Positions 1,239-58,637 of a stretch of 64,000 nucleotides of DNA are shown piece after piece. The notes under the pieces were generated by a model. The model had not been told where the DNA came from and ran no database searches. It was given only the letters and a program-made list of their open reading frames with translations. This stretch comes from Candidatus Aenigmatarchaeota archaeon. GTDB lineage: Archaea > Aenigmatarchaeota > Aenigmatarchaeia > QMZP01 > JAFGSV01. The translations under genes were made by a program, and so were the position numbers. The first letter of the stretch is position 1. Every line of letters starts with the position of its first letter. Location: positions 164,661 to 228,660 of the forward strand of contig JAFGFG010000009.1 of the NCBI GenBank assembly GCA_016931255.1, in the 5' to 3' direction.

Positions 1239-4200
1239 ATGGCGCTGAAATGTATCATTGAAAAATCTGGACTCATTGCACTTCTTGCAGTATTTATCAT
1301 TGCAGCTTTCATCATCCCATCCGATGCCGCCATAAGCACTGATACATATTCAGACGTTGAAGTGAACCTTTCCACAGCAGGTAATGACAACTGGACGGAA
1401 TCAGGGAGCTACGAATATTTTTCATTCAACCTCACCAACTCCAATGCAACCCTTGAGATAAACGAGATAAACATAACAGTTCCTTCTTCAGGCGGTTATT
1501 CGCTGTTCACAGTGAACATGAGCACCAAGGGAACAGATAACTCCTCATGGACCTGCTACAGCCAGCAGAACGACAGCGCCGGAAACGTCTCGGTGCTCAC
1601 GTGCAACACCAGCACCGACAACATCACGAACGGCGACACACTTGGAATATTCTTCTTTGCAACCGCAGCCATGACCTCATCGGAGGATGTGCATTACTGG
1701 ACTGTTGAGGCATTCAACCTGACACCGGCAACAGTAACATTGAACCTTTCCAGCGGCATAGACGGCGCAGGCCCGGCAGTGACGCTCTCTACACCAGGAA
1801 CCAATACATGGAATGCAGCAGGCGATGTCGAGTTCGACTTTTCCGCAAACGATTCAAATGCGATGGACAACTGCACCGTATGGCTTGACAATGGAACCGC
1901 ATGGGTATCCACCAATGGAAGCGTAGATTCACCGGTGGACAACACGGTCTACAACATAACCATCAACGGCACAAGCGATGGCTCATACATTTGGAACGTC
2001 GAATGCAGCGACACCTTCGGCAACTCTGCATTCTCAGCCGCCAACCGCACAATCAATGTGGGCAACAGGTCGAACATAATCGTTAGCAGCATAATCCAGC
2101 ACGGCTCCGTAGCTCCGTATGATTATTACAACATAACAGTCAACGTAACGCTGACCAACAACGGAACCGCGAATGTATCCAAAACCACGACTCTGACGGT
2201 TTACTTCGACGATGATAATGCTCCTTTATCCTCTCCTCTGAAAGTCTCAACATACACAATATACAGCTACCAGCTAAACTACAGCGGGAGCTACACAGTC
2301 CAGCCTCAGTTCTACATGAATACAACAGCTGACAGGTACTGGGTGATGGCAGTGGCTGACAGCGGGCTCGTAGAGACGGAGCAGTCCGAAGGCGACAACA
2401 CCCTCACGGAGACATTCGACACCGTGTTCAATGTCAGCATAAATTCAGTGACACGCGGCGCTTTCCTAGTGAAGCCCAATGTCAATGTCACTCAGGATGT
2501 CGTTGTCAATGTGACAGTTCTCTACTCCAACGGAACCCCTGCATCAGGACTGGAGTTGCTGAACTTCAGCATCTACGATACGTGGATTGCCAAGGACATG
2601 GGTAGAACCGAGAGCAATGCGATGAACAGCAGCGCAGTGCTTTCAGACTTCGATGACAGCGCAGATGCTTCAGGCATATACATATTCAATTACAGCGTTG
2701 TCGAGATGCAGTTCTACAGCCACGACGATCTCATAGCTCGTTATGCCGAGTATGGACTGCACAGGATAAGCGTGAAGGCTGTCGGCAACAATACATGCGA
2801 GTACTACACGGGAACCAGCACTGCAAGGATTGCCTACAACATAACAGCGCCTTTCTTGGATGGCGTTGAGGGCATCGATGGTTCCGTGCGTGTAGGCGAT
2901 GAAGACGAGGGTATATTTCAGATAACAAATAACGGAAATGAGAACATCTCCGTCACGATAACAATATCTGCTGATGTTGCCAGTTCAATATTAGACCTTG
3001 ACGACTGGAATGGTACTGGCGGTACGGTAAACACCGTCGGACTCAGTATCGGCCAGATGAAAGCTGTTAATGGTACAGTTCAGGCAATTTCAGCAGGTGT
3101 AACAAATTTCACTCTTAACGTCACCTTCACACACGAAGGGGAATTCTACTTCTTCAATTTCTTGGAGGAGGTTGAAGTCGAGGCAGCCAGCACCGGCGGT
3201 GATGACGACACCACAACCACCACAACCACCACAACACCGACAATCGAATGCACGAGGGACAGCGACTGCGACTCCGATGAGGAGTGCAAGAGCCTTAAGT
3301 GCGTTGAACTGGACTGCGACGATGGCTATGTGGCATCAGACCACGAGTGCAAGCTGAAGTCTGTCTATGAGATAGCATTCAAGAACGCGACTTTCGGTTA
3401 TTCCCTTCTCCAGGATGATGTGCTCACAGCAAAGGTGTTCATCAAGAACACGGGAAACAAGGACATCACAGTCGAGCTGGATACTTCCCTTGAGGTGGAC
3501 GGGCTTGAGATAAACATAAGCCCCTCCGAACAGACCATAGCGGACGGCAAGGAAGGACTTTTCGTGGTGCTTTTCACAACAGCCGAGGACGCCAAGGTCG
3601 GCATAAATGAAGGCACATTCAAGGCAACAACTGATTTCTCCACAGCCAAGGCCGAGCAGGCGTTCACTGTTACAATAGAGCCGCTTCCTGCGACAATAGC
3701 AAAGATAAAGACAGACTATCCCGATTATACATCCAGAGTGAACTCGATGTTCGCAGAACTTGAGGCTGCCAAGGCATGGCTGACAGAGGGAAACCTCACT
3801 CTGGCTGAAGCAAAGGCAGTGGAACTGGAGGCACTTCTCAACAGCCTGACAGACGCAATGGATTCAGAGGACTTTGTCCATGCATCGATGTACATGGATG
3901 ACATTGATGCGCTGCTCAGCGATGCAAGGTCAATACTGGATGCGTCCGCTGTTCCGGGAGCTTCATTCGACTGGAATACAATATTCATGTGGATTATGAT
4001 AGTTGTCGTGGTCGCAGGTGCAGCAGGCCTGCTGTTCTACATGATGGCCCCGACCAAGGGCTATGCACTCGGAAAGGGTTATGTGTCACAGAGCGGGACA
4101 AAGAAGCTCTCAGGCATCATCACATCGATAAGAGAGAGTTTTACCAGCAAGCCGACGAGCGCCGGCCAGATAGTCCAGAAGTACAGGCCGACTGCTTACG

Positions 4201-4286
4201 GCAGTGCGTACAGCAAGCTTCCGATAACTTACAGGCCGCCAGCAAGGACGATGCAGGAACGAATGAAAAAGGCGATGAAGAGGTAG
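1239..4286 (+). CDS. Giant N-glycosylated type-I surface (S-layer-like) membrane protein, 1015 aa
   Basis: An N-terminal hydrophobic signal or anchor is followed by dozens of N-x-S/T sequons and a poly-Thr linker (TTTTTTTTTTPT). After that come a Cys-rich module (CTRDSDCDSDEECKSLKCVELDCDDGY), an IKNTGNKDITVELD beta-domain, a coiled-coil, a C-terminal TM (IFMWIMIVVVVAGAAGLLFYMM) and a basic tail. It is a paralog of 18790..22224. Confidence 0.7.
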   Translation: MALKCIIEKSGLIALLAVFIIAAFIIPSDAAISTDTYSDVEVNLSTAGNDNWTESGSYEYFSFNLTNSNATLEINEINITVPSSGGYSLFTVNMSTKGTDNSSWTCYSQQNDSAGNVSVLTCNTSTDNITNGDTLGIFFFATAAMTSSEDVHYWTVEAFNLTPATVTLNLSSGIDGAGPAVTLSTPGTNTWNAAGDVEFDFSANDSNAMDNCTVWLDNGTAWVSTNGSVDSPVDNTVYNITINGTSDGSYIWNVECSDTFGNSAFSAANRTINVGNRSNIIVSSIIQHGSVAPYDYYNITVNVTLTNNGTANVSKTTTLTVYFDDDNAPLSSPLKVSTYTIYSYQLNYSGSYTVQPQFYMNTTADRYWVMAVADSGLVETEQSEGDNTLTETFDTVFNVSINSVTRGAFLVKPNVNVTQDVVVNVTVLYSNGTPASGLELLNFSIYDTWIAKDMGRTESNAMNSSAVLSDFDDSADASGIYIFNYSVVEMQFYSHDDLIARYAEYGLHRISVKAVGNNTCEYYTGTSTARIAYNITAPFLDGVEGIDGSVRVGDEDEGIFQITNNGNENISVTITISADVASSILDLDDWNGTGGTVNTVGLSIGQMKAVNGTVQAISAGVTNFTLNVTFTHEGEFYFFNFLEEVEVEAASTGGDDDTTTTTTTTTPTIECTRDSDCDSDEECKSLKCVELDCDDGYVASDHECKLKSVYEIAFKNATFGYSLLQDDVLTAKVFIKNTGNKDITVELDTSLEVDGLEINISPSEQTIADGKEGLFVVLFTTAEDAKVGINEGTFKATTDFSTAKAEQAFTVTIEPLPATIAKIKTDYPDYTSRVNSMFAELEAAKAWLTEGNLTLAEAKAVELEALLNSLTDAMDSEDFVHASMYMDDIDALLSDARSILDASAVPGASFDWNTIFMWIMIVVVVAGAAGLLFYMMAPTKGYALGKGYVSQSGTKKLSGIITSIRESFTSKPTSAGQIVQKYRPTAYGSAYSKLPITYRPPARTMQERMKKAMKR

Positions 4287-4287
4287 A

Positions 4288-6375
4288 CTATTCGATAACA
4301 ACCGGGGAATATCCCCTGTGACTTCTGAATCTTTCTTCAAGCTCTTCTATCTTGTCGTGTATTTCCTTAAGGTCGAACTTGTGAACAGTGCTCTCAAGCC
4401 AGTCAGCCTTTGTCTTGAGTATCTCTATGTCCCTCATCACATTCACAACACCGGAATCCTCGACATTCCTGACTGTGGAATCGAATGAGCTAAGCCTTGT
4501 ATTGAGAGCCTTCATGTCAATGCCGAGGGTCTCGTTCTCCTTGTTTACATTGTCTTCAAGTTTCTTTATGCTGTCCTTCAGGGAATTCAGCTGCTTCTGG
4601 AAGCTCTCGAACTGCCTGAGTATCGTTGTCATCTTGGCCTCTGAGGGTTTCATCACGTCCTCCATCTTGGCAACATTCCTGTCAAGAAGGTCTATCTTTC
4701 CTTTTATCTGGTCTCCGAGAAGCTTGCTTATTGTTCCCGGCTGCGCAAGAAGCTGCTCGATTGTGTTCTCCACAATCTCTTCCTTCAGGTCATCAAGCTC
4801 CTTGAGCTTGCCCTTCAGCTGTAGGCTGAAATCATCTAGCCTGTGCTTCGTGTCGTTTCCTACATATTCAGGAAGCCATTCCCTGAGCTCTTCCATCCTC
4901 CTTTCGAGGTCCTTGAACTTATCATAACCGACTCCCTCGCCTATTTCCTTCTCAAGGGATTTTACCCTCTTCTCAAGGGCTTCACTTACACTGCCCTTGC
5001 CGCTGTCAGGGATGTCTATGGGCTTGAGTCCCTCAGCGAGAATGTTGAGCTTTGATGTGCTTTTTTCGAGCTTCTCAATCTTGCTTTTCATTGCATGTAT
5101 CTCTTCAATGGGTATCTCGCCCTTGAACTTCCTGAGTTCCTCAAGCGCATCCGGAGCCATTCCGACGCTTGCCGCCTTCTTCTCGATGCCGGATATCTGC
5201 TCACGGACAGAATTGATGTCCCGGGAAAGTGTGTCTATCTTTTCAAGCAGTCCCGCTCCCCCCTTGTCTGTCTTCAGATCAAGTATATCCTTGCCCTGGT
5301 CGTCTATGGACGTCCTTATGCTTTCAATCATGCTCCTGAGTTCTTCCACATCGCCGTTCTCCTTTTTCTCAGACTTCTTTCCTGACTTCACCTTCACAGC
5401 GCTGAGCTTTTCGACATTGCCTTCAAGCTCTTTGATTTTCCTGATAATGTCTTCAGGAATCGCTTTCTGCGGTTTCTGGGCAGGCTCTCGGAAAGCATCA
5501 ACCCTTTTCTCTATTTTTTCAAACCTTTCAAGAAGTTCATCCGGAGAGTCGTGCGGAAGCCCGTCTATGGAATCATTGAGCTTTTCTATACGGCCTTCCA
5601 TCCGCTCAAGCCTTTTCAGCAGGTCCTTCGATGGTTTTGCATTCACTTCAACGGGCTTTGCGTCTTCCCCGCCGCCGATTGCGGCCTCAAGCAGCTTCAG
5701 CCTGTCAAGAACATCATCATCCATTTCAGTCCCATCCCCCCCTGCTCTGGACTTTATGCCCGAAAGGATACTCTTTTGTTCGCCTATCTCATCCTTCAGC
5801 TTTTCCATCTGAGCTGAGAATCTTTCTATCTTTTCCAGCTTGCTGAGTATGCTTTTAGGGGTGGGTACCGCCTTGCCGGACGGTGCTGATGCCGAAGATG
5901 CATTGACAGGGCCTGCGGTCTCAAGCTTCTCTATCCTTTCCCTGAGTGCCCTGATTTCGCTGCTCCCGGGAGCTGTTACCTTCACTTTCTTCCCCACAGG
6001 AAGTTTTTCGAATTCATCGAGCCTCTCCCTGAGGCTGTCTATTTCACTGTTTATCCCGCTGAGGTCAACATTCGCACCTGGAACTTTCGCAACCTTGGCA
6101 GGCCTTCTGTTAATATCATCCCTGAGTTCCTCAAGTTCTGAAACCAGCTTTTCAGCCTTCTTTATGCTGTCAGCCTTCTCGACCAGCTTCCTTATCTCAG
6201 ACATCTGGTCGGATGTGACAGCTGAATTGCCATCGGAAAGGCTCGCCCTGTCCAGCTCGTTCTTGACATTGATTATGTCCAGCTTGTTCACCAGCTGGAG
6301 ATCCTCGAGCTCAGCCAGCTTATCGTTTATGGATTTCAGAATTTCGCTCTCTGTGTTCTGGTTTTCCTCTTCCAT
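4288..6375 (-). CDS. Large acidic coiled-coil protein (695 aa), possible cytoskeletal or membrane-associated scaffold
   Basis: The protein is nearly all heptad-like E/K/L/D-rich sequence, with no TM segment and no ATPase motifs. It is convergent with, and abuts, the surface protein gene. Confidence 0.55.
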   Translation of the reverse strand: MEEENQNTESEILKSINDKLAELEDLQLVNKLDIINVKNELDRASLSDGNSAVTSDQMSEIRKLVEKADSIKKAEKLVSELEELRDDINRRPAKVAKVPGANVDLSGINSEIDSLRERLDEFEKLPVGKKVKVTAPGSSEIRALRERIEKLETAGPVNASSASAPSGKAVPTPKSILSKLEKIERFSAQMEKLKDEIGEQKSILSGIKSRAGGDGTEMDDDVLDRLKLLEAAIGGGEDAKPVEVNAKPSKDLLKRLERMEGRIEKLNDSIDGLPHDSPDELLERFEKIEKRVDAFREPAQKPQKAIPEDIIRKIKELEGNVEKLSAVKVKSGKKSEKKENGDVEELRSMIESIRTSIDDQGKDILDLKTDKGGAGLLEKIDTLSRDINSVREQISGIEKKAASVGMAPDALEELRKFKGEIPIEEIHAMKSKIEKLEKSTSKLNILAEGLKPIDIPDSGKGSVSEALEKRVKSLEKEIGEGVGYDKFKDLERRMEELREWLPEYVGNDTKHRLDDFSLQLKGKLKELDDLKEEIVENTIEQLLAQPGTISKLLGDQIKGKIDLLDRNVAKMEDVMKPSEAKMTTILRQFESFQKQLNSLKDSIKKLEDNVNKENETLGIDMKALNTRLSSFDSTVRNVEDSGVVNVMRDIEILKTKADWLESTVHKFDLKEIHDKIEELEERFRSHRGYSPVVIE

Positions 6376-6411
6376 TTTATCACTTATATTATTGCTTTTC
6401 TGCTATAAATC

Positions 6412-6921
6412 TTACAATTCAATGCTTGGCGCCACTTCCGGGCAGACCGAACTGATAATCTTCACATCATTAAGGCTGGCTGTTGACGCATTGAAGTCTT
6501 CTGTGACATTGGCCTCTATGAAGGCTGACATCCCCGGTCTCAGGGGGTCTGACGCGCCTATGTCAGTGCTGTCTGTCAGCACGTAATGGTATATGTTTTC
6601 CACTGATGCATTCTCAACTGTCACCTCAAACGTGAAGCTGTAAAGGTCTATGTTTCCGGTGTTCACTATTTTCACCCTTATGAGGTCTGTTTCATTGTTA
6701 GAGACGTTGTAGCTGAAATTGGACATGACGCCGTAATAACCGTAACTGCTGTCGAAATCAAGTCCGGCTGACCGGCATTTCATCTGCTGCTGTGCACTGC
6801 TGCCGGTCTGATTGGACAGCGTGAATGTAAGCTCATACATCCACGGAGCCATCATCGATGCTATTGATATAGATATGACAATCAGGATTACAACTGAAAC
6901 AAGAGGAGAGAGGCCTTTCAT
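6412..6921 (-). CDS. Type IV pilin-like protein (class III signal peptide)
   Basis: The N-terminus MKG|LSPLVSVVILIVISISIA has a short basic leader, then Gly, then a hydrophobic helix, as in archaeal prepilins. The mature part has N-glycosylation sequons. Confidence 0.6.
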   Translation of the reverse strand: MKGLSPLVSVVILIVISISIASMMAPWMYELTFTLSNQTGSSAQQQMKCRSAGLDFDSSYGYYGVMSNFSYNVSNNETDLIRVKIVNTGNIDLYSFTFEVTVENASVENIYHYVLTDSTDIGASDPLRPGMSAFIEANVTEDFNASTASLNDVKIISSVCPEVAPSIEL

Positions 6922-6943
6922 GAATATAATTGCTTTCCTGTCC

Positions 6944-7669
6944 TTAAAATTCTTCAGCCTCTATGGTAATGAAATCAGCACCGGATTCGAGCGTGAATGT
7001 GATGCTGTAGTTGTTGAGGTAGACATATGATGTGTTTATGTAGGCATTGACCATTCCCCTTGGAAGGTTGTAGCCTTCATCAGCAAGCTCTGTGTAACCT
7101 GTGCCGTACATTGAGTCAGGGCTTCCGTCTATTGATATCTCAAGCCTCTCAAGGTCCATCCATGCGTCAAGGTCCTTGTTGTATACCTTCATGAGAAGCT
7201 CGCTTGTGTTATAGGCCTCAGGGGAGGACGAATTTCCTATGTTCTTCAGGTACACTACCAGATGCTGATTCTCGAGTATATGGGCTCCCTGGGTGCTGTT
7301 GGTATACGCGCTTGTGTCAAGGTTGGCGCCTACCATGAGGTTGCCCATCCTCTGATAGCTTCTCGGAGAGACTATCATGCTGCTGGTCTCCATTGTCCAT
7401 TTGATGCTGTCAGTGTCACTATCGAGCAGGAGCTCGCCGCCGCCGAGGTTTATGTAAATCGTCCTCTTGCTGCCCTTGCCTTCTGATGCGACTTCCTGTA
7501 TCTTCTCGTCAAGGTCCAGCATCATGGACTTGGTCTGCTCGAACACCGATGCGTCCTGCATGGACTTTATAACAGGTGTTGCCATGCTGTAGACAAGGAA
7601 TACGAGTGTCACGGTGATTGCGAGGAATATCACTTCTGTGGTGATTGCTAAACCTTTCATAATCATCAT
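6944..7669 (-). CDS. Type IV pilin-like protein (class III signal peptide)
   Basis: The N-terminus MMIMKG|LAITTEVIFLAITVTLVFLVY is followed by a beta-rich extracellular domain. It is co-oriented with, and tightly spaced to, its neighbours. Confidence 0.6.
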   Translation of the reverse strand: MMIMKGLAITTEVIFLAITVTLVFLVYSMATPVIKSMQDASVFEQTKSMMLDLDEKIQEVASEGKGSKRTIYINLGGGELLLDSDTDSIKWTMETSSMIVSPRSYQRMGNLMVGANLDTSAYTNSTQGAHILENQHLVVYLKNIGNSSSPEAYNTSELLMKVYNKDLDAWMDLERLEISIDGSPDSMYGTGYTELADEGYNLPRGMVNAYINTSYVYLNNYSITFTLESGADFITIEAEEF

Positions 7670-7677
7670 TTGTTCTT

Positions 7678-8268
7678 TCAGGCTAATATCTCTTTCCTGA
7701 CTGAATTGTCCCCGCTGCTCACAGATATGAGAGAGTACACGGATGTCTTGTTTGTCAGGACGTCCGCGCTGAATGTTTCCCCGTAAACTTCCATCGCAAG
7801 CAATAATGTATAATCAGGTGTGCTGAAGGTTGTCGAGTTCTGTGTGCCTGCATCCGCATAAAGCGTCTTGTAGGTTCCGGATATGTTTATTCCCAGTGTC
7901 ACCGGGCTGTCCATGAAATTGCCTGCAGTCACATTCATGCTTCCTGCCATGGGCTCGAACAGCACCCACAGGCAATCAAGCTCAGCACCTGAATCCGATG
8001 CTGCGCTGAGTGCATAAACCGTGAAATTTGTAAGCACGCCTGCTGCATTGGAAGCATTGACGCCGACACCTGCTGCATGGGGAATTTCCATCTCAAGGTT
8101 TTTAGCGATATTCTCTATTCCCGCTGATGATGTCGATACGAGCCTTACCGCAGGCGTGAGACCGAAGAACAGCAGCATGCATATGGCCAGTGCGCCGACA
8201 AGGAAGAACTGGCCTTTCTTACCTGAATACATATAGAATAACCTCCATCGGCTGGTAAGTATCGTCAC
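7678..8268 (-). CDS. Type IV pilin-like protein; the likely true start is the internal Met at 8232 (MYSGKKG|QFFLVGALAICMLLF)
   Basis: A class III signal peptide motif (KKGQ followed by a hydrophobic stretch). The start is ambiguous between 8268 and 8232. Confidence 0.55.
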   Translation of the reverse strand: MTILTSRWRLFYMYSGKKGQFFLVGALAICMLLFFGLTPAVRLVSTSSAGIENIAKNLEMEIPHAAGVGVNASNAAGVLTNFTVYALSAASDSGAELDCLWVLFEPMAGSMNVTAGNFMDSPVTLGINISGTYKTLYADAGTQNSTTFSTPDYTLLLAMEVYGETFSADVLTNKTSVYSLISVSSGDNSVRKEILA

Positions 8269-8593
8269 CTGAAAGAATTATCCTTGATGTCCACACATCG
8301 CTGCTTTCAGGCACGCTTCCTGTGCATGAACCCGAATAATCGCATATGGAAACAGCATGGCTTAGTCCTGAGAGATATCCGGTTTCCTCTATGGCATCAT
8401 CTATTGACATGGTGTCACCCTGCGCGGCAAACTCCCTCAGCATTCCTTTCATGTAGATGTCATTGAGCGCTTTTTGTCCATTGTCCGAGAAGTCAGCAGG
8501 TTTTTCCATGTATGTTGCTGATATGACTGCCAGGAAGAGCAGTATAACCACTCCGGCAAGCATTGACTCAACTGTCTTCCATTGTCCTTTCAT
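8219..8593 (-). CDS. Type IV pilin-like protein (124 aa). The start is re-assigned to an internal Met and shares its T with the upstream TAA stop (TAATG)
   Basis: The sequence MKG|QWKTVESMLAGVVILLFLAVISATYM begins at aa 68 of the tracked ORF. The long ORF N-terminus has no features. The ATG at 8593..8591 shares one base with the stop of gene 8593..9282. Confidence 0.6.
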   Translation of the reverse strand: MKGQWKTVESMLAGVVILLFLAVISATYMEKPADFSDNGQKALNDIYMKGMLREFAAQGDTMSIDDAIEETGYLSGLSHAVSICDYSGSCTGSVPESSDVWTSRIILSGDDTYQPMEVILYVFR

Positions 8594-9282
8594 TACCACA
8601 ACCTCACTGTTATGTTTACAGTCCCGTCTTCCCATAGCCTTCCGGACTTCCGGAATGCGAAGACATCCCTGTCTGTTATCGGAACCGGCGGGCCGCATGT
8701 CATTTCCGTGCCGTTGTCTACCAGGACATTGAAGTCCATATTCAGCCCTATGGAATCCTTCACAGACTGGTAGCTGCTGTTGATGACATGACACAAATCA
8801 AGGTTCTTTGAGTCTGAGAAAAATTCAATTATCTCCGTAGGCCATAATTTTGTCTGGTTCTCGTCTGTCTCAGCCAGTGATGCGCCGCACTGCACAGGCA
8901 TGCCGTAGTCCAGTGACTCTATGAAGAAGAAGTTGTCGCCTGTTTTGATGTCTCCGGTCCAGTACAGCCTGTCTCCTGATATCATGCATGGCAAGGATGA
9001 CCCGGAGTATCTTGAGAGGACAATCCTTGTGGAATCCTCAGTGTCTCCGGTCCAGTTCATGTAAGCCCACATCACTGCGTCATCTGCATCAGAAGGCGCG
9101 TCCAGATAGGCTGCATTGGAGATGGAATCAGCTGAAAGATATGACACCACATTCTCCCCTGCCCTGATGGCGTAGTCAGCCTTTTCTGTTACAGCTCCGC
9201 TGTTCATCATGCCGTAATATGCAAAGGCCCATGTCGAGAACATGAGAAACATGAATATGGCGATTATCCAGTCGATGCGCAT
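8593..9282 (-). CDS. Membrane-anchored extracellular protein of unknown function (pilus operon member)
   Basis: An N-terminal TM (IDWIIAIFMFLMFSTWAFAYY) is followed by an extracellular domain with sequons and Cys. It is translationally coupled to the downstream pilin. Confidence 0.5.
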   Translation of the reverse strand: MRIDWIIAIFMFLMFSTWAFAYYGMMNSGAVTEKADYAIRAGENVVSYLSADSISNAAYLDAPSDADDAVMWAYMNWTGDTEDSTRIVLSRYSGSSLPCMISGDRLYWTGDIKTGDNFFFIESLDYGMPVQCGASLAETDENQTKLWPTEIIEFFSDSKNLDLCHVINSSYQSVKDSIGLNMDFNVLVDNGTEMTCGPPVPITDRDVFAFRKSGRLWEDGTVNITVRLW

Positions 9283-9285
9283 ACT

Positions 9286-9840
9286 TTATTTTTCTCTTAG
9301 CGCGATTATATGCTTTCTCAGCTTTGCTGTCAGTCTGTCCCATTTCAGCCAGCACAGCCATATAACCAGCACAACTGCAAGCAAACCCAGTTGCCACAGC
9401 CAGTCGTGGACGAACATTGCCGTGTCGTAGCCATACAATGATTCTGTGAAGACAACCGCAAGAATCCTCAGGAGGTTGGCAGCATATATGAGCGGGATTC
9501 CCACAGCAAGGCCGAGCAGCTTCCTCCTGTAGCCTGCTTCCATGGTCGCGAACATGAGTGCGAACAGCAGCATCATGGATTTCCAGCCTGTGCAGTCCTC
9601 TCCTATATAGAAAGTGAAGGGTTCTCCCGGACCGCATACGAGTACGAGTCCCATGCTGCTGACGTCGAATCCGGAAGCTGATATGAGCCATTCGGAATGG
9701 GCTGCGACTGCCTGCTGGAGAGGAAGCATGCTTATGCCAAGCACAATCACGAGGTAAAGCGGAACTGAAAGCAGGATGAGCCTTACCACGAAGAGCAGCA
9801 GTCTGACTAGTTTTTCATTCTCAGGAACTTTCAGAACCAT
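9286..9840 (-). CDS. Short exosortase/archaeosortase-family-like polytopic membrane protein (putative)
   Basis: It has about five TM helices. The segment EDCTGWKSMMLLF resembles the C-[ST]-G-x-[RK]-S Cys motif of exosortases, and the downstream AANLLRI has the conserved Asn and Arg. It is the first gene of the pilin-like operon. Confidence 0.4.
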   Translation of the reverse strand: MVLKVPENEKLVRLLLFVVRLILLSVPLYLVIVLGISMLPLQQAVAAHSEWLISASGFDVSSMGLVLVCGPGEPFTFYIGEDCTGWKSMMLLFALMFATMEAGYRRKLLGLAVGIPLIYAANLLRILAVVFTESLYGYDTAMFVHDWLWQLGLLAVVLVIWLCWLKWDRLTAKLRKHIIALREK

Positions 9841-9882
9841 ATAAATTATAATGGCGTTATATCTTTATAGAAAGGTGATGTA

Positions 9883-10188
9883 ATGACAAGCAGATGCGAG
9901 AAAGCTGTTCATGACATTTTCCCTGTAGCCAGGGCAATGATAGCCAAGAGGCTTGTTGATGTCTACAAGTTTTCCCAGACCAGGTCAGCGAAATACATGG
10001 GCATATCCCAGCCTGCCATATCGCAGTACAGGAAGAACATGCGCGGCAATAAGAAAACCTCATTCATGGATGACGCAGGATTTCTGGATGTGATAAATGA
10101 AATTGCAAAAGGCATAGCCGAGGGAAGCATAAAGCCCGAGCAGGTAGATGACAGTATGTGCAGGATATGCAGGGAAGTTCAGAAGTAA
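9883..10188 (+). CDS. Small HTH transcriptional regulator
   Basis: The segment YMGISQPAISQY is a helix-turn-helix. It is divergent from the pilin operon, and an SD (aggtga) lies 6 nt upstream. Confidence 0.55.
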   Translation: MTSRCEKAVHDIFPVARAMIAKRLVDVYKFSQTRSAKYMGISQPAISQYRKNMRGNKKTSFMDDAGFLDVINEIAKGIAEGSIKPEQVDDSMCRICREVQK

Positions 10189-14897: not shown

Positions 14898-17069
14898 CTA
14901 ACTTTTTCCGAAATTCCTGCCTACCAATGAGAGATCATCTATGCATATAACGCCATCTTTGTTAAGGTCAGCTAATGGATTCCATTTGTCCTGTCTTTGC
15001 GGTAAACAATCGCATGAACCGCCTACAATGTAATCCGATGCACATGATTTCATTGATTTGGCTACTATTACGAGGTCTTTAACATCCACTATATCGTCAC
15101 CGTTGGCATCGCCTTTAGGCTTGCATTCACAACTTCCATAACAGTAATCGTCAATGTTGCAGTCTCCATCACTTTCACACTCAGCACCGCACTGTATGAT
15201 GTCGCATGTGTGTGTCAGCGTAACAGTTCCAGTTGTGCATACATCATTGGCTTCGTCACAGCTTGATGTGAATCCCGGGAACCAGTCCCATGTGAATGCT
15301 ATGCTGTCAGGGTCATTCGTGCATGTGGCTATTGAGAGAATATTATTGGCTGAACAATCAACTGCAATTCCAGCTTGGCAATCCAGAAGTGCGTCACATG
15401 TCTCACTGCCGTCGCACCAAAGTTCATTGTCACAGTTCCCATTATTTGGTGTATTTACTATCACATCATTTATTTCATCACAACTGTCGTCAGTGCATGT
15501 TACACCATCGTCTACAACAGGAGGAGTTCCTGCCTGACAGTCAAGGAGTGCGTCACAGAATTCATTCCCATTACAGAAAAGAGTGTCATCACAGAGAGCG
15601 TTATTTACCGAGTTCTCACATGAGTCTGTTTCCTCGTCGCACGAATCAACAGTGCAGCCTACGCCGTCCGAGCAGTCTCTGGATTCGCAACTGCATTCCC
15701 CAGACTGGCACACATCATTCACTGTGCAGAAGTTCCCGTCGTCGCAGGGCGTCCCATCATCCTTGTTGCTGCTCGTACCGGTGTCGACCCACTGCGTGTC
15801 CGTCACGGAGTACTCGCATCCTGAACCTCCACATATGTAATCCCTGTATTCCTCTTCCTTCTGCTCTTTTTCAGTGCACTCGCCGGTGGATACCCACTGT
15901 ATCTCTCCTGTGTCGTACCAGACGTCTGATGCATTACAATCCTCTGTGAGATAGAAACATGAACAGTCGCTCTCGCACGAGCCGCCGTAATTGTAGACAT
16001 CGCCTACACACTTGTCGCTGCACGGATTCTGGGAGTCGCATTCCGCACCGCACTGGGAAACGTTGCATGTGCTCGTTATGCTTACGGTTCCGGTAGTGCA
16101 CACGTCGTTCTCCTCATCGCATGCCGATACGAATCCAGTGAAAACATCCAGTGTCCAATCGTAGCCGTCAGGTGTGTAACTGCATATTGAAATCGGTTCT
16201 ATGTCATTGTTGGTACAGTCAAACGGCTGGAAGAAGCATCCGTCAGGACCCATGCATTCACCGTCATGTCCTTCGCACCAAAGACCGCTTTCAGGAAGCA
16301 GACACAATGCATCCCCATCGTCATCAATCACTCCATTGCAATCGCTATCATTTCCATCACATACTTCATCCACGCTTTCATCAGCGCTTGCACCAGGGTT
16401 CGTGGAGCAGTCAGCAGTGCTTGTTCCCGAACACTCGACCAGTCCCAGTCCGCACTTTCCAATGCCGTCGCATGTCTGGTTTATGTTCAGGCCCTGATAA
16501 GTGAAATCCTCATCACTCAATCCATCGCAGTCATCATCGAGGGCGTTGCAGGTTTCCGATGCAGAATTGTCACGCGTACCGCCCGGGTTCGACCAGCATG
16601 ATGCTGTATTTACATTAAAACACTCGACTTTACCAAAGCCACATGTACCGATTCCATAGCATCCCTGTCCGACATATCTAGACTCTTCATAAACAGGATC
16701 ATCATAATAAAATTCTTCGTCTGTACTGCCGTCGCAGTCATTGTCAAATGTATCGCATATTTCAACGCTAGAGTTATCATGACTTCCACCAGGATTTGTC
16801 CAACAATCTACCTCATTTGTAAAGTTCTCACACTCGACTTTACCAAAGCCACATGTACCGATTCCATAGCATCCCTGTCCGACATATCTAGACTCTTCAT
16901 AAACAGGATCATTATATTCGTCTATGTATCCATCTCCATCATTGTCGATACCATCGCAAATCTCAGTAGCGGCTTTGACATTAGTTGGAGCAAAAAGAAG
17001 AACTAAAGTTACGACTAAAAGAAGAGCCAGTGGAATTGGGCTAGATTTTGTCATCTTAATCCCATCCAT
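14898..17069 (-). CDS. Secreted Cys/Asp-rich protein with MopE-like C-x-DNDCDG-x-DE repeats, internally duplicated Cys modules and a C-terminal dockerin type-I module
   Basis: It has a Sec signal peptide (cleavage after VKA) and four repeats of the form EICDGIDNDGDGYIDE / EICDTFDNDCDGSTDEE. The segment YNDPVYEESRYVGQGCYGIGTCGFGKVEC is duplicated. The C-terminus reads DANGDDIVDVKDLVIVAKSM...DLNKDGVICIDDLSLVGRNF, a paired Ca-binding dockerin repeat. Confidence 0.7.
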   Translation of the reverse strand: MDGIKMTKSSPIPLALLLVVTLVLLFAPTNVKAATEICDGIDNDGDGYIDEYNDPVYEESRYVGQGCYGIGTCGFGKVECENFTNEVDCWTNPGGSHDNSSVEICDTFDNDCDGSTDEEFYYDDPVYEESRYVGQGCYGIGTCGFGKVECFNVNTASCWSNPGGTRDNSASETCNALDDDCDGLSDEDFTYQGLNINQTCDGIGKCGLGLVECSGTSTADCSTNPGASADESVDEVCDGNDSDCNGVIDDDGDALCLLPESGLWCEGHDGECMGPDGCFFQPFDCTNNDIEPISICSYTPDGYDWTLDVFTGFVSACDEENDVCTTGTVSITSTCNVSQCGAECDSQNPCSDKCVGDVYNYGGSCESDCSCFYLTEDCNASDVWYDTGEIQWVSTGECTEKEQKEEEYRDYICGGSGCEYSVTDTQWVDTGTSSNKDDGTPCDDGNFCTVNDVCQSGECSCESRDCSDGVGCTVDSCDEETDSCENSVNNALCDDTLFCNGNEFCDALLDCQAGTPPVVDDGVTCTDDSCDEINDVIVNTPNNGNCDNELWCDGSETCDALLDCQAGIAVDCSANNILSIATCTNDPDSIAFTWDWFPGFTSSCDEANDVCTTGTVTLTHTCDIIQCGAECESDGDCNIDDYCYGSCECKPKGDANGDDIVDVKDLVIVAKSMKSCASDYIVGGSCDCLPQRQDKWNPLADLNKDGVICIDDLSLVGRNFGKS
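16621..16922. repeat. Intragenic direct repeat. Two identical 82-bp copies (16621-16702 and 16841-16922) lie 220 bp apart
   Basis: The copies begin cactcgactttaccaaagccacatgtaccgattccatagcatccctgtccgacatatctagactcttcataaacaggatc and match exactly. Each encodes one of the duplicated YNDPVYEESRYVGQGCYGIGTCGFGKVEC segments. Confidence 0.85.
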
Positions 17070-18789: not shown

Positions 18790-21700
18790 GTGGCTTTGGA
18801 AGATGGCGCGACCAAAAACAGAGTTGTTGTTATAGCCTTGAGCATAGCGCTCGTATTCGCTGTTTATTTCATTCCGGCTAATTTCACGGGTTTTGTGGCT
18901 TATGCTGTTACTGAGGAAACAGTTGATGGGGAAGGAACGACTCTGGGTGATGGTACTCTTCAAGGAGCTACAGATTACACAGACACTAATTCATTCGACG
19001 GAAACTTTGAGTACATAGAAGAAAATATCAGTAGAAGAGTTAAATGGGACTACGTCTTTAATACAAATTATAATGACACAATACCAGCTAGAATGGAATT
19101 TTTTGCATATTATGTAAATTTTGCAGAATTTGTGATGTTTGGTATTTATAATTATGAATTTTCTCAGTGGGATGTATTGAATCAAACTACACAAAAAAAT
19201 CAAAATTTAAATCTTACATACGTGTTCTCTTGGGATGTAAAGAATCTGACAGATTATATAAATCCAGTAAATGGTGAAATCAAGATATACTTTGAAGACG
19301 TCAACTCCTCGTCCATTCAAAATCTATTTTCAATCGACTACCTCGCCATCAACGTCACTGTGTCGCCGCTGTATGACCTTTCCTATGTGCTGACGAACTC
19401 ATCTGGGGATGCGCAGTCGGACGGCGTCAATGTGACCAGAAGCGGCTACCTCAATGCCTCTGCGCTCTGGAACCTCTCAGGTGTGGAGCAGTCACTTGCA
19501 TGGCTCAATGCAAGCGGCTATGTGAGCACATACAGCTTCCCTCACTACGATTCCAATGACAACTGGACGAATCATACTTTCAACTTCACGAACTATACGC
19601 TGTGCCCGGTTGCCGGGAATGTCAGTGTGAGGCTGAAGGCTTACGATGAGTTCTACCAGCAGAACTTCACGCAGGAGACGCGGTACTTCTACCTGTGGGG
19701 GCAGAGTGCACTTGGAAGCACGATGCTGGTGAATGCCTCGATATACGATGAGAATTATACGATTGCATCCGGCTCTGTTTATCAGGTTTCCTGCATTGTC
19801 ATGGACGCCAACAGCAGTGCTGCTGTTCCCGGCCATAACGTCACTTTCTACGAGGACCATGCTTTCATAGGGTCGGCACTTACGAATTCTACGGGATGGG
19901 CGGGTTTTGTCCATACAGCTTCCAGTGGTGCGGGAAGCCATGACATCATCTGCAACATAACCGATGATGGTTCCGTTTATTATACACTCGGCGGGGCGAA
20001 CACCACCAACACGACAGTCTATTACATCGATGACGTCTACCCGCCTTATTTCACAGAGGACTGGTTCGAGTATGAGGGGCAGAGGCTTGCCAATACATCC
20101 GGCTATTATGAGGCACCTTTCTACAGGAACGTGACACTCGTGGTCAATGCCAGCGACAACACGACGTACGTCACCAGCGTCATAGCGGAGGTAACGCACA
20201 ACGCAGGCACCCATATCAATCATACGCTGGCTGAAGGAGGAGATGGTTTATGGAGGATGGACTTTGACAATTCAGATGCGACAATGTCACTGAACGCCTC
20301 CCTCACATTCCACTTCTATTATCAGGATGCAGGAGGCAACTGGAACAACACGAATGTCGTCGGGCCAGGAGGCAGCCTGAGCCCGAACTGGACCATGCAC
20401 ATAAACCTCACATCCTGGAATTCGTCCGCAGTGTACAACCGCGGCGAGAACCTCACATTCTTCGCTTCGGACATCCACTGGTTTGCCTTTGATGAGGCCA
20501 ACTGGTCGCTGAATGTGAGCAAGTACAACCAAACAGGCAGCAATCTCTTTACTGGCGGCACGCAGGGATACTTCAATTACAGCGTGAATGCTACAGACCC
20601 TCTGGGCAACTGGTCATTACTGGTCAACACTTCATGGATGGACAACAACGGCACTGCGGACTTCACTTTCAATGTAACGGACCAGCTTTCCGTTGCCTTC
20701 ACATCGCCTGCAGGGACAGTCTTCCAGCCGAGTCAGTCCATTAGTCCAATAGTCACTGTGAAGAATGTGAGAGGAGGGATTGTCCCGTGGAACGTCACTG
20801 TCAACGTATCGTGCAATGGCGGGGAATACATGACGCTACTGAGGTCAGGCAACAGCTACATAATGAACGCATCTGACAACTCGCATACATGCACTGCTCC
20901 GGGTTCTTACAGTGCGTCCTTCAGCATCTCGGCGAATGTCACATGCCCGTACAACAACAGCAATGTGCTTGAGACTCTGTCACTCTCGACTGTGTCTGAA
21001 GGCGGCGGGTCGAATCCACCGGGAAGCAGCGGAAGCACTGTCTACATACCGCCTGCCTGCAACTGCACTGAATGGAAGGACGTGGACTGCGGCTCAGGGA
21101 ACTGCACTGAGGACGAGATGTATCAGGAAAGGGTGTGCGTTCCTTCCGGTTGCGAGGCCGAGGCGAGATGCATAGCTGTATCGGAGTGCAGGGACAGGAA
21201 GAACTTCCAGATAACGTCATACACTGAAGTGGTTGAGGTTACGCAGGGAAAGAACGGCACTGCATTGTTCACAGTGGAGAACACAGGCAACAAGGACTTC
21301 AGCCTTGCGATAAAACTTGACCATGACTGCTGCAGCATGTTTCCGAGATTCAATGAGTTCAGTCTTCCACAGAAGACAAGCGTTAGCATTCCGATAGTCA
21401 TTCATGCACCGCTTTCACAGGAGCCGGGTGAATACACGATGGAGGTGAAATTCACGGAACAGGATTTCGAGAAGACGGAGACCGTGAGGATTATTGTCAA
21501 TCCCAATGAGATGATTGATGAGCTCAGCAGTTTCAGGTCTCTTCTCAACAGCCTGCGGGAGCAGATTGATGTACTGGAGAATGCCGGCGTGGATGTCACA
21601 GGCCTCAGGAGGCAGCTGGACGAGCTGGCAGCAGCCATAGATTCCGCCCAGAGAAGCACGATTGAAGACGACCTGAATGCATTTGGCGCAATGCTGGACA

Positions 21701-22224
21701 GCATCCAGTCGGTTTCTGATTCAGTGAATGAGTCGCTTCTTCCTGTGAAACTGCAGGGATTCTTCTACATGTCATGGTACATGTTCGCAGCGATTTTAAT
21801 GGCTGCTCTGGTTGAGGTGTACCTGCTGAGACAATTCATGCTTCCTCCTGTTATCAATGAGGGAAGAATAAGAAGGCTTCGCGGAAAGCTTGATGATATC
21901 ACAAGTGCAAAGAAAGACACCCTGCGCAAGTACAGCAACAGGAAGATAGATGAGAAGAGCTTCGGGACGCTCTCCGAGAAATACTCCAGCGAAACAAGCA
22001 TGGTGAATTCTGAGATCATCAGGCTGGAGGAAGAGAAGAGGAACGCTCTGTCATCAGGGCCCAGTTTCAGCGGCTTCGCACGATGGCTGCTTCACAGGAA
22101 GACAGAAGAGGAAAAGAAGAGGGAGACGTCATCAAAGAGCAAGGCGAAGAACACGAAGATGATGGATTTCCAGAAAAAGTATCTCGACGCCAAGAAGCGG
22201 CAGGAAGAGATGGACAGAAGATAG
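18790..22224 (+). CDS. Giant N-glycosylated type-I surface membrane protein (1144 aa). It starts with GTG and is a paralog of 1239..4286
   Basis: An N-terminal TM (VVVIALSIALVFAVYFIPA) is followed by a very high density of N-x-S/T sequons. The C-terminal part has a Cys-rich module (PACNCTEWKDVDCGSGNCTEDEMYQERVCVPSGCEAEARC), VENTGNKDFSLAIKLD, a coiled-coil, a TM (FFYMSWYMFAAILMAALVEVYLL) and a K/R/E-rich tail. Confidence 0.7.
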   Translation: MALEDGATKNRVVVIALSIALVFAVYFIPANFTGFVAYAVTEETVDGEGTTLGDGTLQGATDYTDTNSFDGNFEYIEENISRRVKWDYVFNTNYNDTIPARMEFFAYYVNFAEFVMFGIYNYEFSQWDVLNQTTQKNQNLNLTYVFSWDVKNLTDYINPVNGEIKIYFEDVNSSSIQNLFSIDYLAINVTVSPLYDLSYVLTNSSGDAQSDGVNVTRSGYLNASALWNLSGVEQSLAWLNASGYVSTYSFPHYDSNDNWTNHTFNFTNYTLCPVAGNVSVRLKAYDEFYQQNFTQETRYFYLWGQSALGSTMLVNASIYDENYTIASGSVYQVSCIVMDANSSAAVPGHNVTFYEDHAFIGSALTNSTGWAGFVHTASSGAGSHDIICNITDDGSVYYTLGGANTTNTTVYYIDDVYPPYFTEDWFEYEGQRLANTSGYYEAPFYRNVTLVVNASDNTTYVTSVIAEVTHNAGTHINHTLAEGGDGLWRMDFDNSDATMSLNASLTFHFYYQDAGGNWNNTNVVGPGGSLSPNWTMHINLTSWNSSAVYNRGENLTFFASDIHWFAFDEANWSLNVSKYNQTGSNLFTGGTQGYFNYSVNATDPLGNWSLLVNTSWMDNNGTADFTFNVTDQLSVAFTSPAGTVFQPSQSISPIVTVKNVRGGIVPWNVTVNVSCNGGEYMTLLRSGNSYIMNASDNSHTCTAPGSYSASFSISANVTCPYNNSNVLETLSLSTVSEGGGSNPPGSSGSTVYIPPACNCTEWKDVDCGSGNCTEDEMYQERVCVPSGCEAEARCIAVSECRDRKNFQITSYTEVVEVTQGKNGTALFTVENTGNKDFSLAIKLDHDCCSMFPRFNEFSLPQKTSVSIPIVIHAPLSQEPGEYTMEVKFTEQDFEKTETVRIIVNPNEMIDELSSFRSLLNSLREQIDVLENAGVDVTGLRRQLDELAAAIDSAQRSTIEDDLNAFGAMLDSIQSVSDSVNESLLPVKLQGFFYMSWYMFAAILMAALVEVYLLRQFMLPPVINEGRIRRLRGKLDDITSAKKDTLRKYSNRKIDEKSFGTLSEKYSSETSMVNSEIIRLEEEKRNALSSGPSFSGFARWLLHRKTEEEKKRETSSKSKAKNTKMMDFQKKYLDAKKRQEEMDRR

Positions 22225-57788: not shown

Positions 57789-58637
57789 ATGCTTGGCTGG
57801 ATACTGCTCGCCATTGGAATCGCCGGTTTCGGCTATGGCGGCTGGAAAGACCTAAAGACAACGGAATTCCATGACTGGCTTCCGTACTCAATGATAATAG
57901 CAGCACTCGCTGTGCGGGGGATTTTCTCCTATATCACAGGAGACCTTTCCATCATAACAGGTTCCGTCTTCTATGGGCTGCTGTTCCTCGGCTTCGGATA
58001 TCTCCTCTACTTCGCAAGGCAGTGGGGTGATGGCGATGCATGGCTCATGGGCGCATTGGGATTCCTCTTTCCGGACAGCGCAGGTTTCATTCCACCGCTG
58101 ACAGACATAATGCCTTTCCCGTTCGTCCTTGTTTTTAACTTCTTCCTGCTTTCCCTCTTGTACCTCATAGGATATGCGTTTATACTCGGAATGATGAAGC
58201 CGCATGTTGTCAGGACTTTCAGGAAGAATCTGAAGAGCAGGATAAAAGCGATATATGCGATATTCATATCAACAGGCATTGCATCTGTTGCAGTTCCCCT
58301 TTACATGAGTTATACTTATTCAGTTCCTCTTGAAAGCTTCGCGGGCATTTTCACCATTCCGTTCATAGGGCTTTTCATGATGTTCTTTTTCCAGTATGCA
58401 AGGGCTGTTGAGAACGACTTGTTCAAGAGGAAGATAAAGGCCAAGGATCTTCATGAAGGTGATGTGATAATAACTGACAAATGGAGAGGCATTACGGAGA
58501 AGGAAGTCAAAGAGCTTAAGATAAAAGGCGGGGATGTGTGGATAAAGGAGGGGGTGCGGTTTGCACCTGTGTTCATTCTCACGCTTCTCTTCACAGTTTT
58601 CGTCGGCAGTCTTACGGTTATACTATTTCCTCTTTGA
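57789..58637 (+). CDS. Archaeal prepilin/preflagellin peptidase (A24 family, FlaK/PibD-like)
   Basis: The first catalytic Asp motif WKDLKTTEF (DLKxRxI-like) follows TM1. The second is QWGDGDAWLMGALG (GxGDxKL-like). It has 6 or more TM helices plus a C-terminal domain. Confidence 0.6.
   Translation: MLGWILLAIGIAGFGYGGWKDLKTTEFHDWLPYSMIIAALAVRGIFSYITGDLSIITGSVFYGLLFLGFGYLLYFARQWGDGDAWLMGALGFLFPDSAGFIPPLTDIMPFPFVLVFNFFLLSLLYLIGYAFILGMMKPHVVRTFRKNLKSRIKAIYAIFISTGIASVAVPLYMSYTYSVPLESFAGIFTIPFIGLFMMFFFQYARAVENDLFKRKIKAKDLHEGDVIITDKWRGITEKEVKELKIKGGDVWIKEGVRFAPVFILTLLFTVFVGSLTVILFPL

Follow-up and report, generated by a model that had tools for sequence, protein, structure and literature searches.

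The archaeosortase system of Haloferax volcanii (ArtA/PGF-CTERM) and the type IV pilus loci of Euryarchaeota are among the closest described counterparts of a locus in Candidatus Aenigmatarchaeota contig JAFGFG010000009.1, of which a stretch of 64,000 nucleotides (the window) was analyzed. Within the window, positions 4288-10188 form a tightly packed operon that is conserved in Aenigmatarchaeota, together with a divergent gene for a candidate helix-turn-helix (HTH) regulator. Seven minus-strand genes run head to tail and encode an archaeosortase-family protein (Art), five pilin-like proteins (B230, C124, D180, E239, and F169), and a coiled-coil protein (Gcc). A first-pass annotation of the window had counted four pilin-like genes and treated B230 merely as a membrane-anchored extracellular protein preceding them. 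B230 is instead the fifth pilin-like protein and the partner of Art, and the operon also takes in Gcc. To our knowledge, neither partners nor a mechanism are known for any archaeosortase but ArtA, and the cell-surface structures of DPANN archaea, which mediate host-cell attachment, are almost unstudied.

Art shares with ArtA its family (PF09721/TIGR04178) and the same Cys/Arg/His residues, and Sec-exported proteins encoded beside its relatives have tripartite tails with a PG-containing motif. Art is much shorter than ArtA (184 residues against a model of 271 positions), and its score with the ArtA model, 36.8 bits, is below the cut-off of 75. The tail motif of the relatives differs from PGF-CTERM, and no client was found in the window. 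A further difference is the fixed pairing of Art with a pilin-like protein, for which ArtA has no reported counterpart.

In bacterial PEP-CTERM systems, the accessory protein EpsI is encoded adjacent to the exosortase EpsH or is fused with it (TIGR02914). Art and B230 resemble this pair: in both cases the gene for a polytopic sorting enzyme precedes that for a single-pass protein whose extracytoplasmic domain has about 200 residues, and occasionally the two are joined, with the single-pass protein at the C-terminus of the enzyme. Only the gene arrangement is analogous. B230 differs from EpsI in coming from a family of type IV pilin-like proteins whose distant members bear class III leaders, and 13 B230 members searched against Pfam and NCBIfam gave no match to the EpsI models (TIGR02914/PF11984) at E-values up to 10.

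Standard type IV pilus loci of Euryarchaeota contain at least five minor pilins, a surface-layer (S-layer)-like protein with a C-terminal transmembrane (TM) segment, and an intracellular coiled-coil protein (Makarova, Koonin, Albers 2016, PMC4858521). The operon and its neighborhood have the same inventory, with about five minor-pilin-like genes, an S-layer-like protein, and a coiled-coil protein, and the peptidase, and presumably the ATPase/TadC module, are likewise encoded elsewhere. The locus differs in carrying a sortase-family gene, in having one leaderless subunit, and in belonging to a DPANN lineage. The M. maripaludis protein ArtE (MMJJ_17200) is, like Art, a short archaeosortase-family protein without a known client, and it is required for natural transformation, which depends on type IV-like pili (PMC10133366). 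Art scores 22.1 bits against the ArtE cut-off of 95, however, and artE does not adjoin the epd pilin genes. The class C sortase pili of Gram-positive bacteria also place a Cys transpeptidase in one operon with pilus subunits. Their enzyme has an unrelated fold and their subunits are LPXTG-tailed and covalently polymerized, whereas the subunits here are type IV pilin-like proteins with a class III signal and no C-terminal signal.

Three uncharacterized archaeal families, DUF7287, DUF7288, and DUF7289, give weak N-terminal matches to B230, C124, and E239, respectively (13-19 bits against a gathering threshold of 27, mainly in the N-terminal helix region). The B230 and C124 genes are adjacent, and E239 lies two genes further on with D180 in between. 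No literature on these three families was found.

In keeping with the first-pass view that such an arrangement is undescribed, full-text literature searches turned up no paper that places an archaeosortase or exosortase within a pilin operon, and the 2016 type IV pilus survey mentions no sortase. Three elements are new here: an archaeosortase subfamily outside the named ones, a family of leaderless pilins with which it is firmly paired, and, in relatives, a candidate sorting signal. The mechanism set out below is inferred.

An Unclassified Archaeosortase Subfamily

By its profile matches, Art is a genuine member of the exosortase/archaeosortase family. It scores 66.3 bits against TIGR04178 (cut-off 23) and 58.6 bits against PF09721 (gathering threshold 25.7), which bears out its first-pass description as exosortase- or archaeosortase-like rather than a prepilin peptidase. 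Among the named subfamilies compared (ArtA-F, XrtH, pacearchaeosortase, heimdallarchaeosortase, and others), Art falls below every cut-off, and the best score is that for XrtH (59.5 against 86). The remaining scores and cut-offs, beyond those for ArtA and ArtE, are 32.4 and 150 for ArtB, 33.1 and 100 for ArtC, 23.8 and 125 for ArtD, 18.8 and 150 for ArtF, and 17.2 and 80 for pacearchaeosortase.

Ten residues are invariant across 18 Art homologues: D82, C83, T84, W86, K87, S88, N122, R125, H145, and D146. The first-pass annotation had read a Cys-Arg-Asn signature from the sequence. For the family as a whole, Cys/Arg/His has been put forward as the catalytic triad (Haft preprint 10.1101/2023.06.07.544157), and C83, R125, and H145 match it; N122 is invariant as well. 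The Cys motif is retained in 33 of 34 Art sequences, the exception being a natural Art-B230 fusion protein, P0090, that has Ser in its place. Hydropathy gives four to five membrane segments, a range that includes the five originally proposed. Kyte-Doolittle hydropathy and the positive-inside rule assign the K/R-rich segments 1-14, 104-107, and 166-184 to the cytoplasmic side and C83, R125, and H145 to the outer one. Art is probably an active enzyme with an intact Cys/Arg/His triad, as judged from these residues.

A scan of 185,579 species-representative genomes found Art at 31 loci, all in Aenigmatarchaeota metagenome-assembled genomes (MAGs) and one per MAG. The scan used the single peptide pattern [GNS][PE]DCTGWK, which diverged paralogues without the motif would escape. 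On these sequence grounds, Art constitutes an unclassified subfamily that was seen only in Aenigmatarchaeota in the species-representative scan.

A Leaderless Pilin-Like Protein

B230 belongs to a large family of pilin-like proteins. An exhaustive profile search recovered 133 cluster representatives, 78 of them at E-values of 1e-30 or below, whereas word-index homologue searches badly under-sampled the family with 6 and 12 matches. Most close members start with M-x-[ILV]-D-W. A class III leader with an acidic residue at position +5 is present in a minority of close members and in nearly all distant ones, where it follows the pattern [KR]G↓xxxx[DE][WYFM] (the arrow marks the processing site). 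Examples of these leaders are MRRG↓LVGVDW, MKG↓EIPIDW, MRKG↓FSQIDY, and MQKRG↓ISHIEV. The window protein has no further-upstream start because the in-frame stop codon of Art lies two codons before its ATG. B230 thus opens at about mature position +2, and no prepilin peptidase is needed.

Conservation in the family is concentrated at two sites. Strongly conserved residues lie within the TM helix (M-x-I-D-W...W..F.YY) and at the C-terminus, where a Trp is conserved throughout the family and the sequence ..V-R-L-W is invariant. The sole helix of B230 is oriented N-in/C-out, and there is no C-terminal TM helix. An AlphaFold2 (AF2) model built from an alignment of 103 sequences has a predicted local distance difference test (pLDDT) score of 95.5; an earlier run on 7 sequences (pLDDT 53) was discarded. 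The model contains an N-terminal helix of 47 residues (3-49), followed by a β-sandwich and an α/β domain, and as modeled B230 has the "lollipop" architecture of a pilin. A profile search of the PDB with B230 gave no match, and the head has no close solved relative. Weak matches to DUF7287 occur in 8 of 13 B230 members, and the B230 of one relative carries a stored, weak PF23958 annotation. With the class III leaders of its distant members and its predicted architecture, B230 is the fifth, leaderless pilin-like protein of an operon with five pilin-like genes.

Distant B230-like genes occur in other settings. In locus L054 (1034-12733; L numbers denote the loci compared), a leader-bearing B230-like gene lies 2.3 kb from an operon of T2SSE and two T2SSF genes. 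This B230-like gene is part of a block conserved in another archaeal lineage, with genes for an FmrO methyltransferase, the B230-like protein, proteins of about 145 and about 740 residues, a GTPase, and OapB. The block lies just downstream of the T2SSE and T2SSF genes in L054 and also occurs in L040 (1101-8405). In L041 (9001-13296), a distant B230-like gene (428 residues, leader KRG↓LTYTDW) is followed by a 125-residue protein resembling C124 (E-value 2e-4 by hidden Markov model, HMM). Next come genes for proteins of 172 and 233 residues without a class III signal at their N-termini and for a presenilin/SPP-type aspartyl protease (PF06550), and the locus has no archaeosortase.

Pairing of Art with B230

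B230 lies directly downstream of Art in all of the approximately 20 loci that have a close B230 homologue. In the window, a single codon separates the Art stop from the B230 start (TAA AGT ATG). Art and B230 are separated by one codon or overlap by 4 or 11 nucleotides in most loci, and the spacing is 19-42 nucleotides in L008-L010, L031, and L037. The arrangement of stop, one codon, and start is common to the window and eight relatives (nine clade I loci, as defined below), and ATGA overlaps occur elsewhere. The in-frame stop was also considered as evidence for read-through. This reading was rejected, as the arrangement recurs in related genomes and inherited translational coupling explains it equally well.

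A neighbor-joining tree divides Art into three clades. Clade I comprises the window and about 12 other loci and has the full operon, which is thus found at about 13 loci in different Aenigmatarchaeota MAGs at 40-70% amino-acid identity. In clade II, Art is followed by sugar-nucleotide, epimerase, glycosyltransferase, and flippase genes, and B230 is absent. Clade III shows the order DUF460-Art-B230 without the four other pilins (L010, L022, L031, L037), and L012 and L030 fall into this clade yet have no B230 beside Art. In clade III loci, the DUF460 (PF04312) gene is consistently found directly upstream of Art (L010, L012, L030, L031, L037, and L038). The first-pass annotation had coupled Art to the class III pilins. 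A coupling specific to these four is not supported, as they are missing from the locus in two of the three Aenigmatarchaeota Art clades. By gene order, the constant partner of Art is B230 and not the four leader-bearing pilins.

In one Aenigmarchaeota MAG (GCA_016202725.1), Art and B230 form a natural fusion protein of 409 residues, P0090 (L038, 3104-4333). Its linker reads ...RRRKG↓DFGIDF... and contains a class III-like site.

A second, independent adjacency of a pilin and Art was observed in the glycosylation-linked Art clade. In L017, a plus-strand gene for a class III pilin of 137 residues (1802-2215, MKG↓ITPIISIIILL) lies directly upstream of Art (2244-2813).

Leader-Bearing Pilin-Like Proteins and Their Assembly

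The four consecutive minus-strand genes with class III N-termini described by the first-pass annotation are all present. The conserved N-termini are MKG↓QWKTVE in C124, [KR]G↓QFF in D180, MKG↓(L/I)(A/S)I(T/S)TE in E239, and MK(G/A)↓LSP(I/L)V in F169, with 7-9 orthologues each at 40-70% identity. Because these signals ([KR][GA] followed by a hydrophobic stretch) are conserved in the orthologues of 7-9 other genomes, they are not chance occurrences.

F169 has an archaeal pilin/archaellin-type N-terminus. It scores 21.9 bits against Arch_flagellin (cut-off 29.5, E-value 2.5e-4) and 21.7 bits against UpsA (cut-off 130, E-value 1.8e-4), both below the cut-off, and its profile aligns with the N-termini of a solved archaeal flagellin and pilins (8fk7, 8gi2, 9myg). 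C124, D180, and B230 match no curated pilin or archaellin model above the cut-off. Fast-evolving pilins commonly miss such models. E239 is the most conserved protein of the set, and seven of its eight orthologues match DUF7289, with a best E-value of 2e-5 and all under the curated cut-off (16.8 against 27 for E239 itself). One C124 orthologue has a weak N-terminal match to DUF7288.

N-glycosylation sequons are present in all four class III proteins except C124, and D180 has six. C-terminal sorting tails are absent from all operon proteins, and the four class III proteins also have no C-terminal TM segment. Recent paralogy was considered as the origin of the five pilin-like families and was rejected, as their profile-profile likeness is limited to the N-terminal helix.

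Residues 63-113 of E239 match single β-propeller blades in the PDB (8prj, 8pra; the Cake and Scone designs). The E-values of 1e-12 to 1e-5 are summed over the repeats of the targets, which are designed structures and natural "cell surface protein" structures. At the sequence level, this match suggests that the pilin head of E239 has a propeller-blade-like hairpin motif.

The first-pass annotation had also placed an A24 prepilin peptidase 48 kb from the operon. The open reading frame (ORF) at issue has a match to PF01478 just below threshold (25.1 bits against 26.5, E-value 2.6e-5) and carries the GxGD-type motif WGDGDAW, in agreement with that assignment. No assembly ATPase or platform gene was found within the 64-kb window, again as first noted: no ORF of at least 150 residues has a Walker A motif, and the large ORFs tested are housekeeping genes. 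This absence is unremarkable, because many archaea as a rule encode their pilin sets in trans, away from the ATPase/TadC module (PMC4858521). In addition, the literature records FlaI and FlaJ for the majority of Aenigmarchaeota MAGs (PMC8407114).

Candidate Clients of Art in Related Genomes

Opposite the Art-B230 pair of L039 and L043 lies a divergent operon that encodes proteins with Sec signals, two of which per locus share a C-terminal tail. The tail consists of the motif ...[YF]P[AP][SD]FPG[LI]-x-x-W, a hydrophobic helix of about 15 residues, and K/R residues; across all loci with the tail, the first position of the motif is [YFW]. A tail-bearing protein with a Sec signal also abuts Art in L030. 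A metagenome scan with the tail yielded 11 loci (L042-L052). Counting the earlier loci, there are 13 distinct FPGL-x-x-W tails in Sec-signal proteins of 167-1685 residues, which are often encoded in tandem.

The tripartite plan of these tails was recognized by eye. Three tail-bearing proteins gave no match to an NCBIfam sorting domain at E-values up to 10, with PGF-CTERM, PEF-CTERM, VPXXXP-CTERM, PEP-CTERM, and others among the known domains in view. The FPGL-x-x-W tail is a candidate for a new PGF-like sorting signal and is apparently undescribed, and the tail-bearing proteins of the sister clades are probably Art clients, to judge from their gene neighborhoods and from their tails, which have the classic make-up seen in client families of archaeosortases. 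The sorting tails that the first-pass annotation had envisaged thus occur beside Art in the relatives L030, L039, and L043, while the operon proteins, the window, and the clade I loci gave none.

Proposed Function and Alternatives

The locus can be read, with about an even chance of being right, as a surface appendage operon specific to Aenigmatarchaeota in which two modules are joined and tied together by an Art-B230 complex. One module would be a standard archaeal pilin set composed of five pilin-like proteins and a coiled-coil protein, with an S-layer-like protein adjoining. Its four leader-bearing subunits would be trimmed by the A24 peptidase encoded 48 kb away and assembled by a FlaI/TadC-type machine encoded elsewhere. 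The other module would be Art, acting as an intramembrane transpeptidase or protease with an intact Cys/Arg/His center, whose ordinary clients are probably Sec-exported surface proteins with the PGF-like tail (FPGL-x-x-W, TM segment, and basic residues). Art and B230 would form a 1:1 membrane complex with the pilin helix of B230 docked to Art, and B230 would be its accessory or docking subunit, a role comparable to that of EpsI with bacterial exosortases. B230 would in this way bring the sortase-type anchoring of surface proteins to pilin assembly. Within this scheme, we infer the physical association of Art with B230, the existence of clients in this genome, and the accessory function of B230. 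Overall, the locus suggests a link between the anchoring of surface proteins and the building of pili in these archaea.

Three observations weigh against this interpretation. Clade II Art genes have no neighboring B230, which implies that Art can work without an adjacent B230. The P0090 fusion is known from one MAG only, and in its Art part the catalytic Cys83 is replaced by Ser (PDSTGWKS); it may be an assembly artefact. Lastly, neither the 64-kb window nor some 150 kb of sequence from clade I loci yielded an FPGL-type or other tripartite C-terminal tail, and an HMM of the FPGL tail likewise matched nothing there.

Alternatively, Art could be a housekeeping enzyme that is transcribed together with an ordinary minor-pilin operon from one promoter, since both contribute to the cell surface, without any direct physical or enzymatic link between Art and a pilin-like protein. 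This explanation is unlikely. It fits the position of clade II Art amid sugar-nucleotide and glycosylation genes without B230, the lack of sorting tails in the operon proteins, and the distant B230-like blocks that have no Art (L040, L041, L054). It also fits the single Art match per MAG in the single-pattern scan, by which Art is probably the sole archaeosortase and must serve general clients. Co-regulation, however, predicts neither a fusion nor the keeping of exactly one pilin-like gene, and the Art-B230 pair survives the loss of the four other pilins (L010, L022, L031, L037, L039, L043), is translationally coupled, and is fused in P0090. A closer link is posited if B230 is a dedicated client of Art, with its N-terminal helix or C-terminal V-R-L-W recognized and the protein then cleaved or modified, for example so as to release its head or anchor it to lipid. 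Sorting enzymes that serve only one client usually have the client gene in tandem with their own (10.1101/2023.06.07.544157), and the strict adjacency of B230 to Art, the conserved residues in its TM helix and C-terminus, and the lack of any other client near clade I Art genes all agree with such a role. Yet B230 has no C-terminal TM segment, and its sole helix runs N-in/C-out, opposite to every known exosortase/archaeosortase signal. Canonical tail-bearing clients also lie beside the same Art-B230 pair in L039 and L043, and the fused version has Ser for the catalytic Cys. We therefore consider a client role for B230 quite improbable.

Most improbable of all is a pilus built by Art itself, in which the enzyme would covalently polymerize or anchor the class III pilins in the manner of class C sortases and replace ATPase-driven assembly. 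C-terminal sorting motifs are absent from the pilins, whose prepilin-peptidase sites are of the usual kind and whose genome encodes an A24 peptidase, and the set of four is missing from two of the three Art clades. The shared operon and the lack of an ATPase within 64 kb would suit a sortase-built pilus, but FlaI and FlaJ are reported in most Aenigmarchaeota MAGs and pilin sets in trans of their ATPase are normal. The requirement for ArtE in the pilus-dependent natural transformation of M. maripaludis is a further point in its favor, although artE does not lie next to the epd pilin genes.

An extension of the favored Art-B230 complex would have Art cleave client tails and transfer adhesins onto B230, or onto a pilin complex nucleated by B230, instead of onto a membrane lipid. 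This step is very unlikely. If it were true, a host-dependent DPANN archaeon would carry adhesins covalently attached to a pilus, by a hybrid of sortase-type and type IV-type pilus biogenesis. We know of no organism with such a hybrid.

The conserved and once-fused pair of an archaeosortase and a leaderless pilin-like protein is directly testable. If the link is real, two surface-biogenesis pathways that have so far been treated separately become connected; if there is only co-regulation, the analysis still provides a useful annotation for five "hypothetical" gene families. The FPGL-x-x-W tail could serve to predict surface proteins in Aenigmatarchaeota, and a large pilin family without need for a prepilin peptidase is of interest for the priming of type IV filaments.

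Operon Layout and Neighboring Genes

The features of the locus and the tail-bearing proteins of related loci are listed in Table 1. The TAATG junction reported at 8591-8595 by the first-pass annotation is real and overlaps the B230 stop with the C124 start. C124 and D180 overlap by 14 nucleotides, and the remaining gaps in the operon are 8-36 nucleotides, the F169-Gcc gap being 36. The E239 ORF could open at 7669, while its orthologues start at MKG.

Table 1. Coordinates of the operon, of associated window genes, and of tail-bearing proteins in related loci.
Feature	Position	Strand	Basis
Art, archaeosortase-family protein, 184 aa (amino acids)	9286-9840	-	TIGR04178 and PF09721 above cut-off
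B230, leaderless type IV pilin-like protein, 229 aa, starts MRIDW, ends in Trp	8593-9282	-	Leaders in the family; AF2 model
C124, class III signal pilin-like protein, MKG↓QWKTVES	8219-8593	-	N-terminus conserved, 9 orthologues
D180, class III signal pilin-like protein, MYSGKKG↓QFFLVG	7678-8232	-	[KR]G↓QFF and hydrophobic helix, 9 orthologues
E239, class III signal pilin-like protein, MKG↓LAITTEV	6944-7660	-	N-terminus conserved
F169, class III signal pilin-like protein, MKG↓LSPLV	6412-6921	-	
Gcc, coiled-coil protein, 695 aa, final operon gene	4288-6375	-	Coiled-coil-type matches only
HTH regulator candidate, 101 aa, divergent from Art	9883-10188	+	Weak HTH matches
S-layer-like surface protein, 1015 aa, convergent with Gcc	1239-4286	+	Sec signal, CARDB
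Putative prepilin peptidase (A24, FlaK/PibD-type)	57789-58637	+	PF01478 near threshold, WGDGDAW
Tail-bearing protein, L039	6868-7383	-	
Tail-bearing protein, L039	2-2188	-	
Tail-bearing protein, L030	7574-8746	-	
Tail-bearing protein, L042	3979-4482		
Tail-bearing protein, L042	4479-8120		
Tail-bearing protein, L043	1036-3123		
Tail-bearing protein, L043	6444-8549		

The start codons of the HTH gene and Art are 42 nucleotides apart. The HTH gene has weak matches only (Cro, DUF134, HTH_3) and is kept in the same position in 11 full-operon loci. Gcc has no TM segment and is conserved after F169 in full-operon loci. The ends of Gcc are sharply conserved (N-terminal LxELEDLQLVNKLDIINVKNELD; C-terminal ..DLEILKTKADWLESTIHKLDL..) and its middle is variable. 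In L033 (1954-3219), a Gcc-like coiled-coil gene of 421 residues directly follows Art, with no pilin genes between them.

The S-layer-like neighbor has a CARDB match of 27 bits, 44 N-glycosylation sequons, and one C-terminal TM segment. The TM segment is followed by a conserved cytoplasmic tail of about 85 residues (GKGY...SAGQIV.KY[RK]P.AY...), which could contact the cytoplasmic coiled-coil protein. This protein was considered as an Art client and was rejected on account of this long tail and its lack of a match to the FPGL-tail HMM. Its homologues are never more than three genes away from the operon (L001-3, L009, L013, and L035), although the gene order has been rearranged.

Envelope proteins are abundant in the window. 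A plus-strand gene (18790-22224) encodes a predicted surface protein of 1144 residues that carries 56 N-glycosylation sequons and, after its C-terminal TM segment, a charged tail, and a minus-strand gene (14898-17069) encodes a predicted surface protein of 723 residues with a weak MopE-like metal-binding motif.

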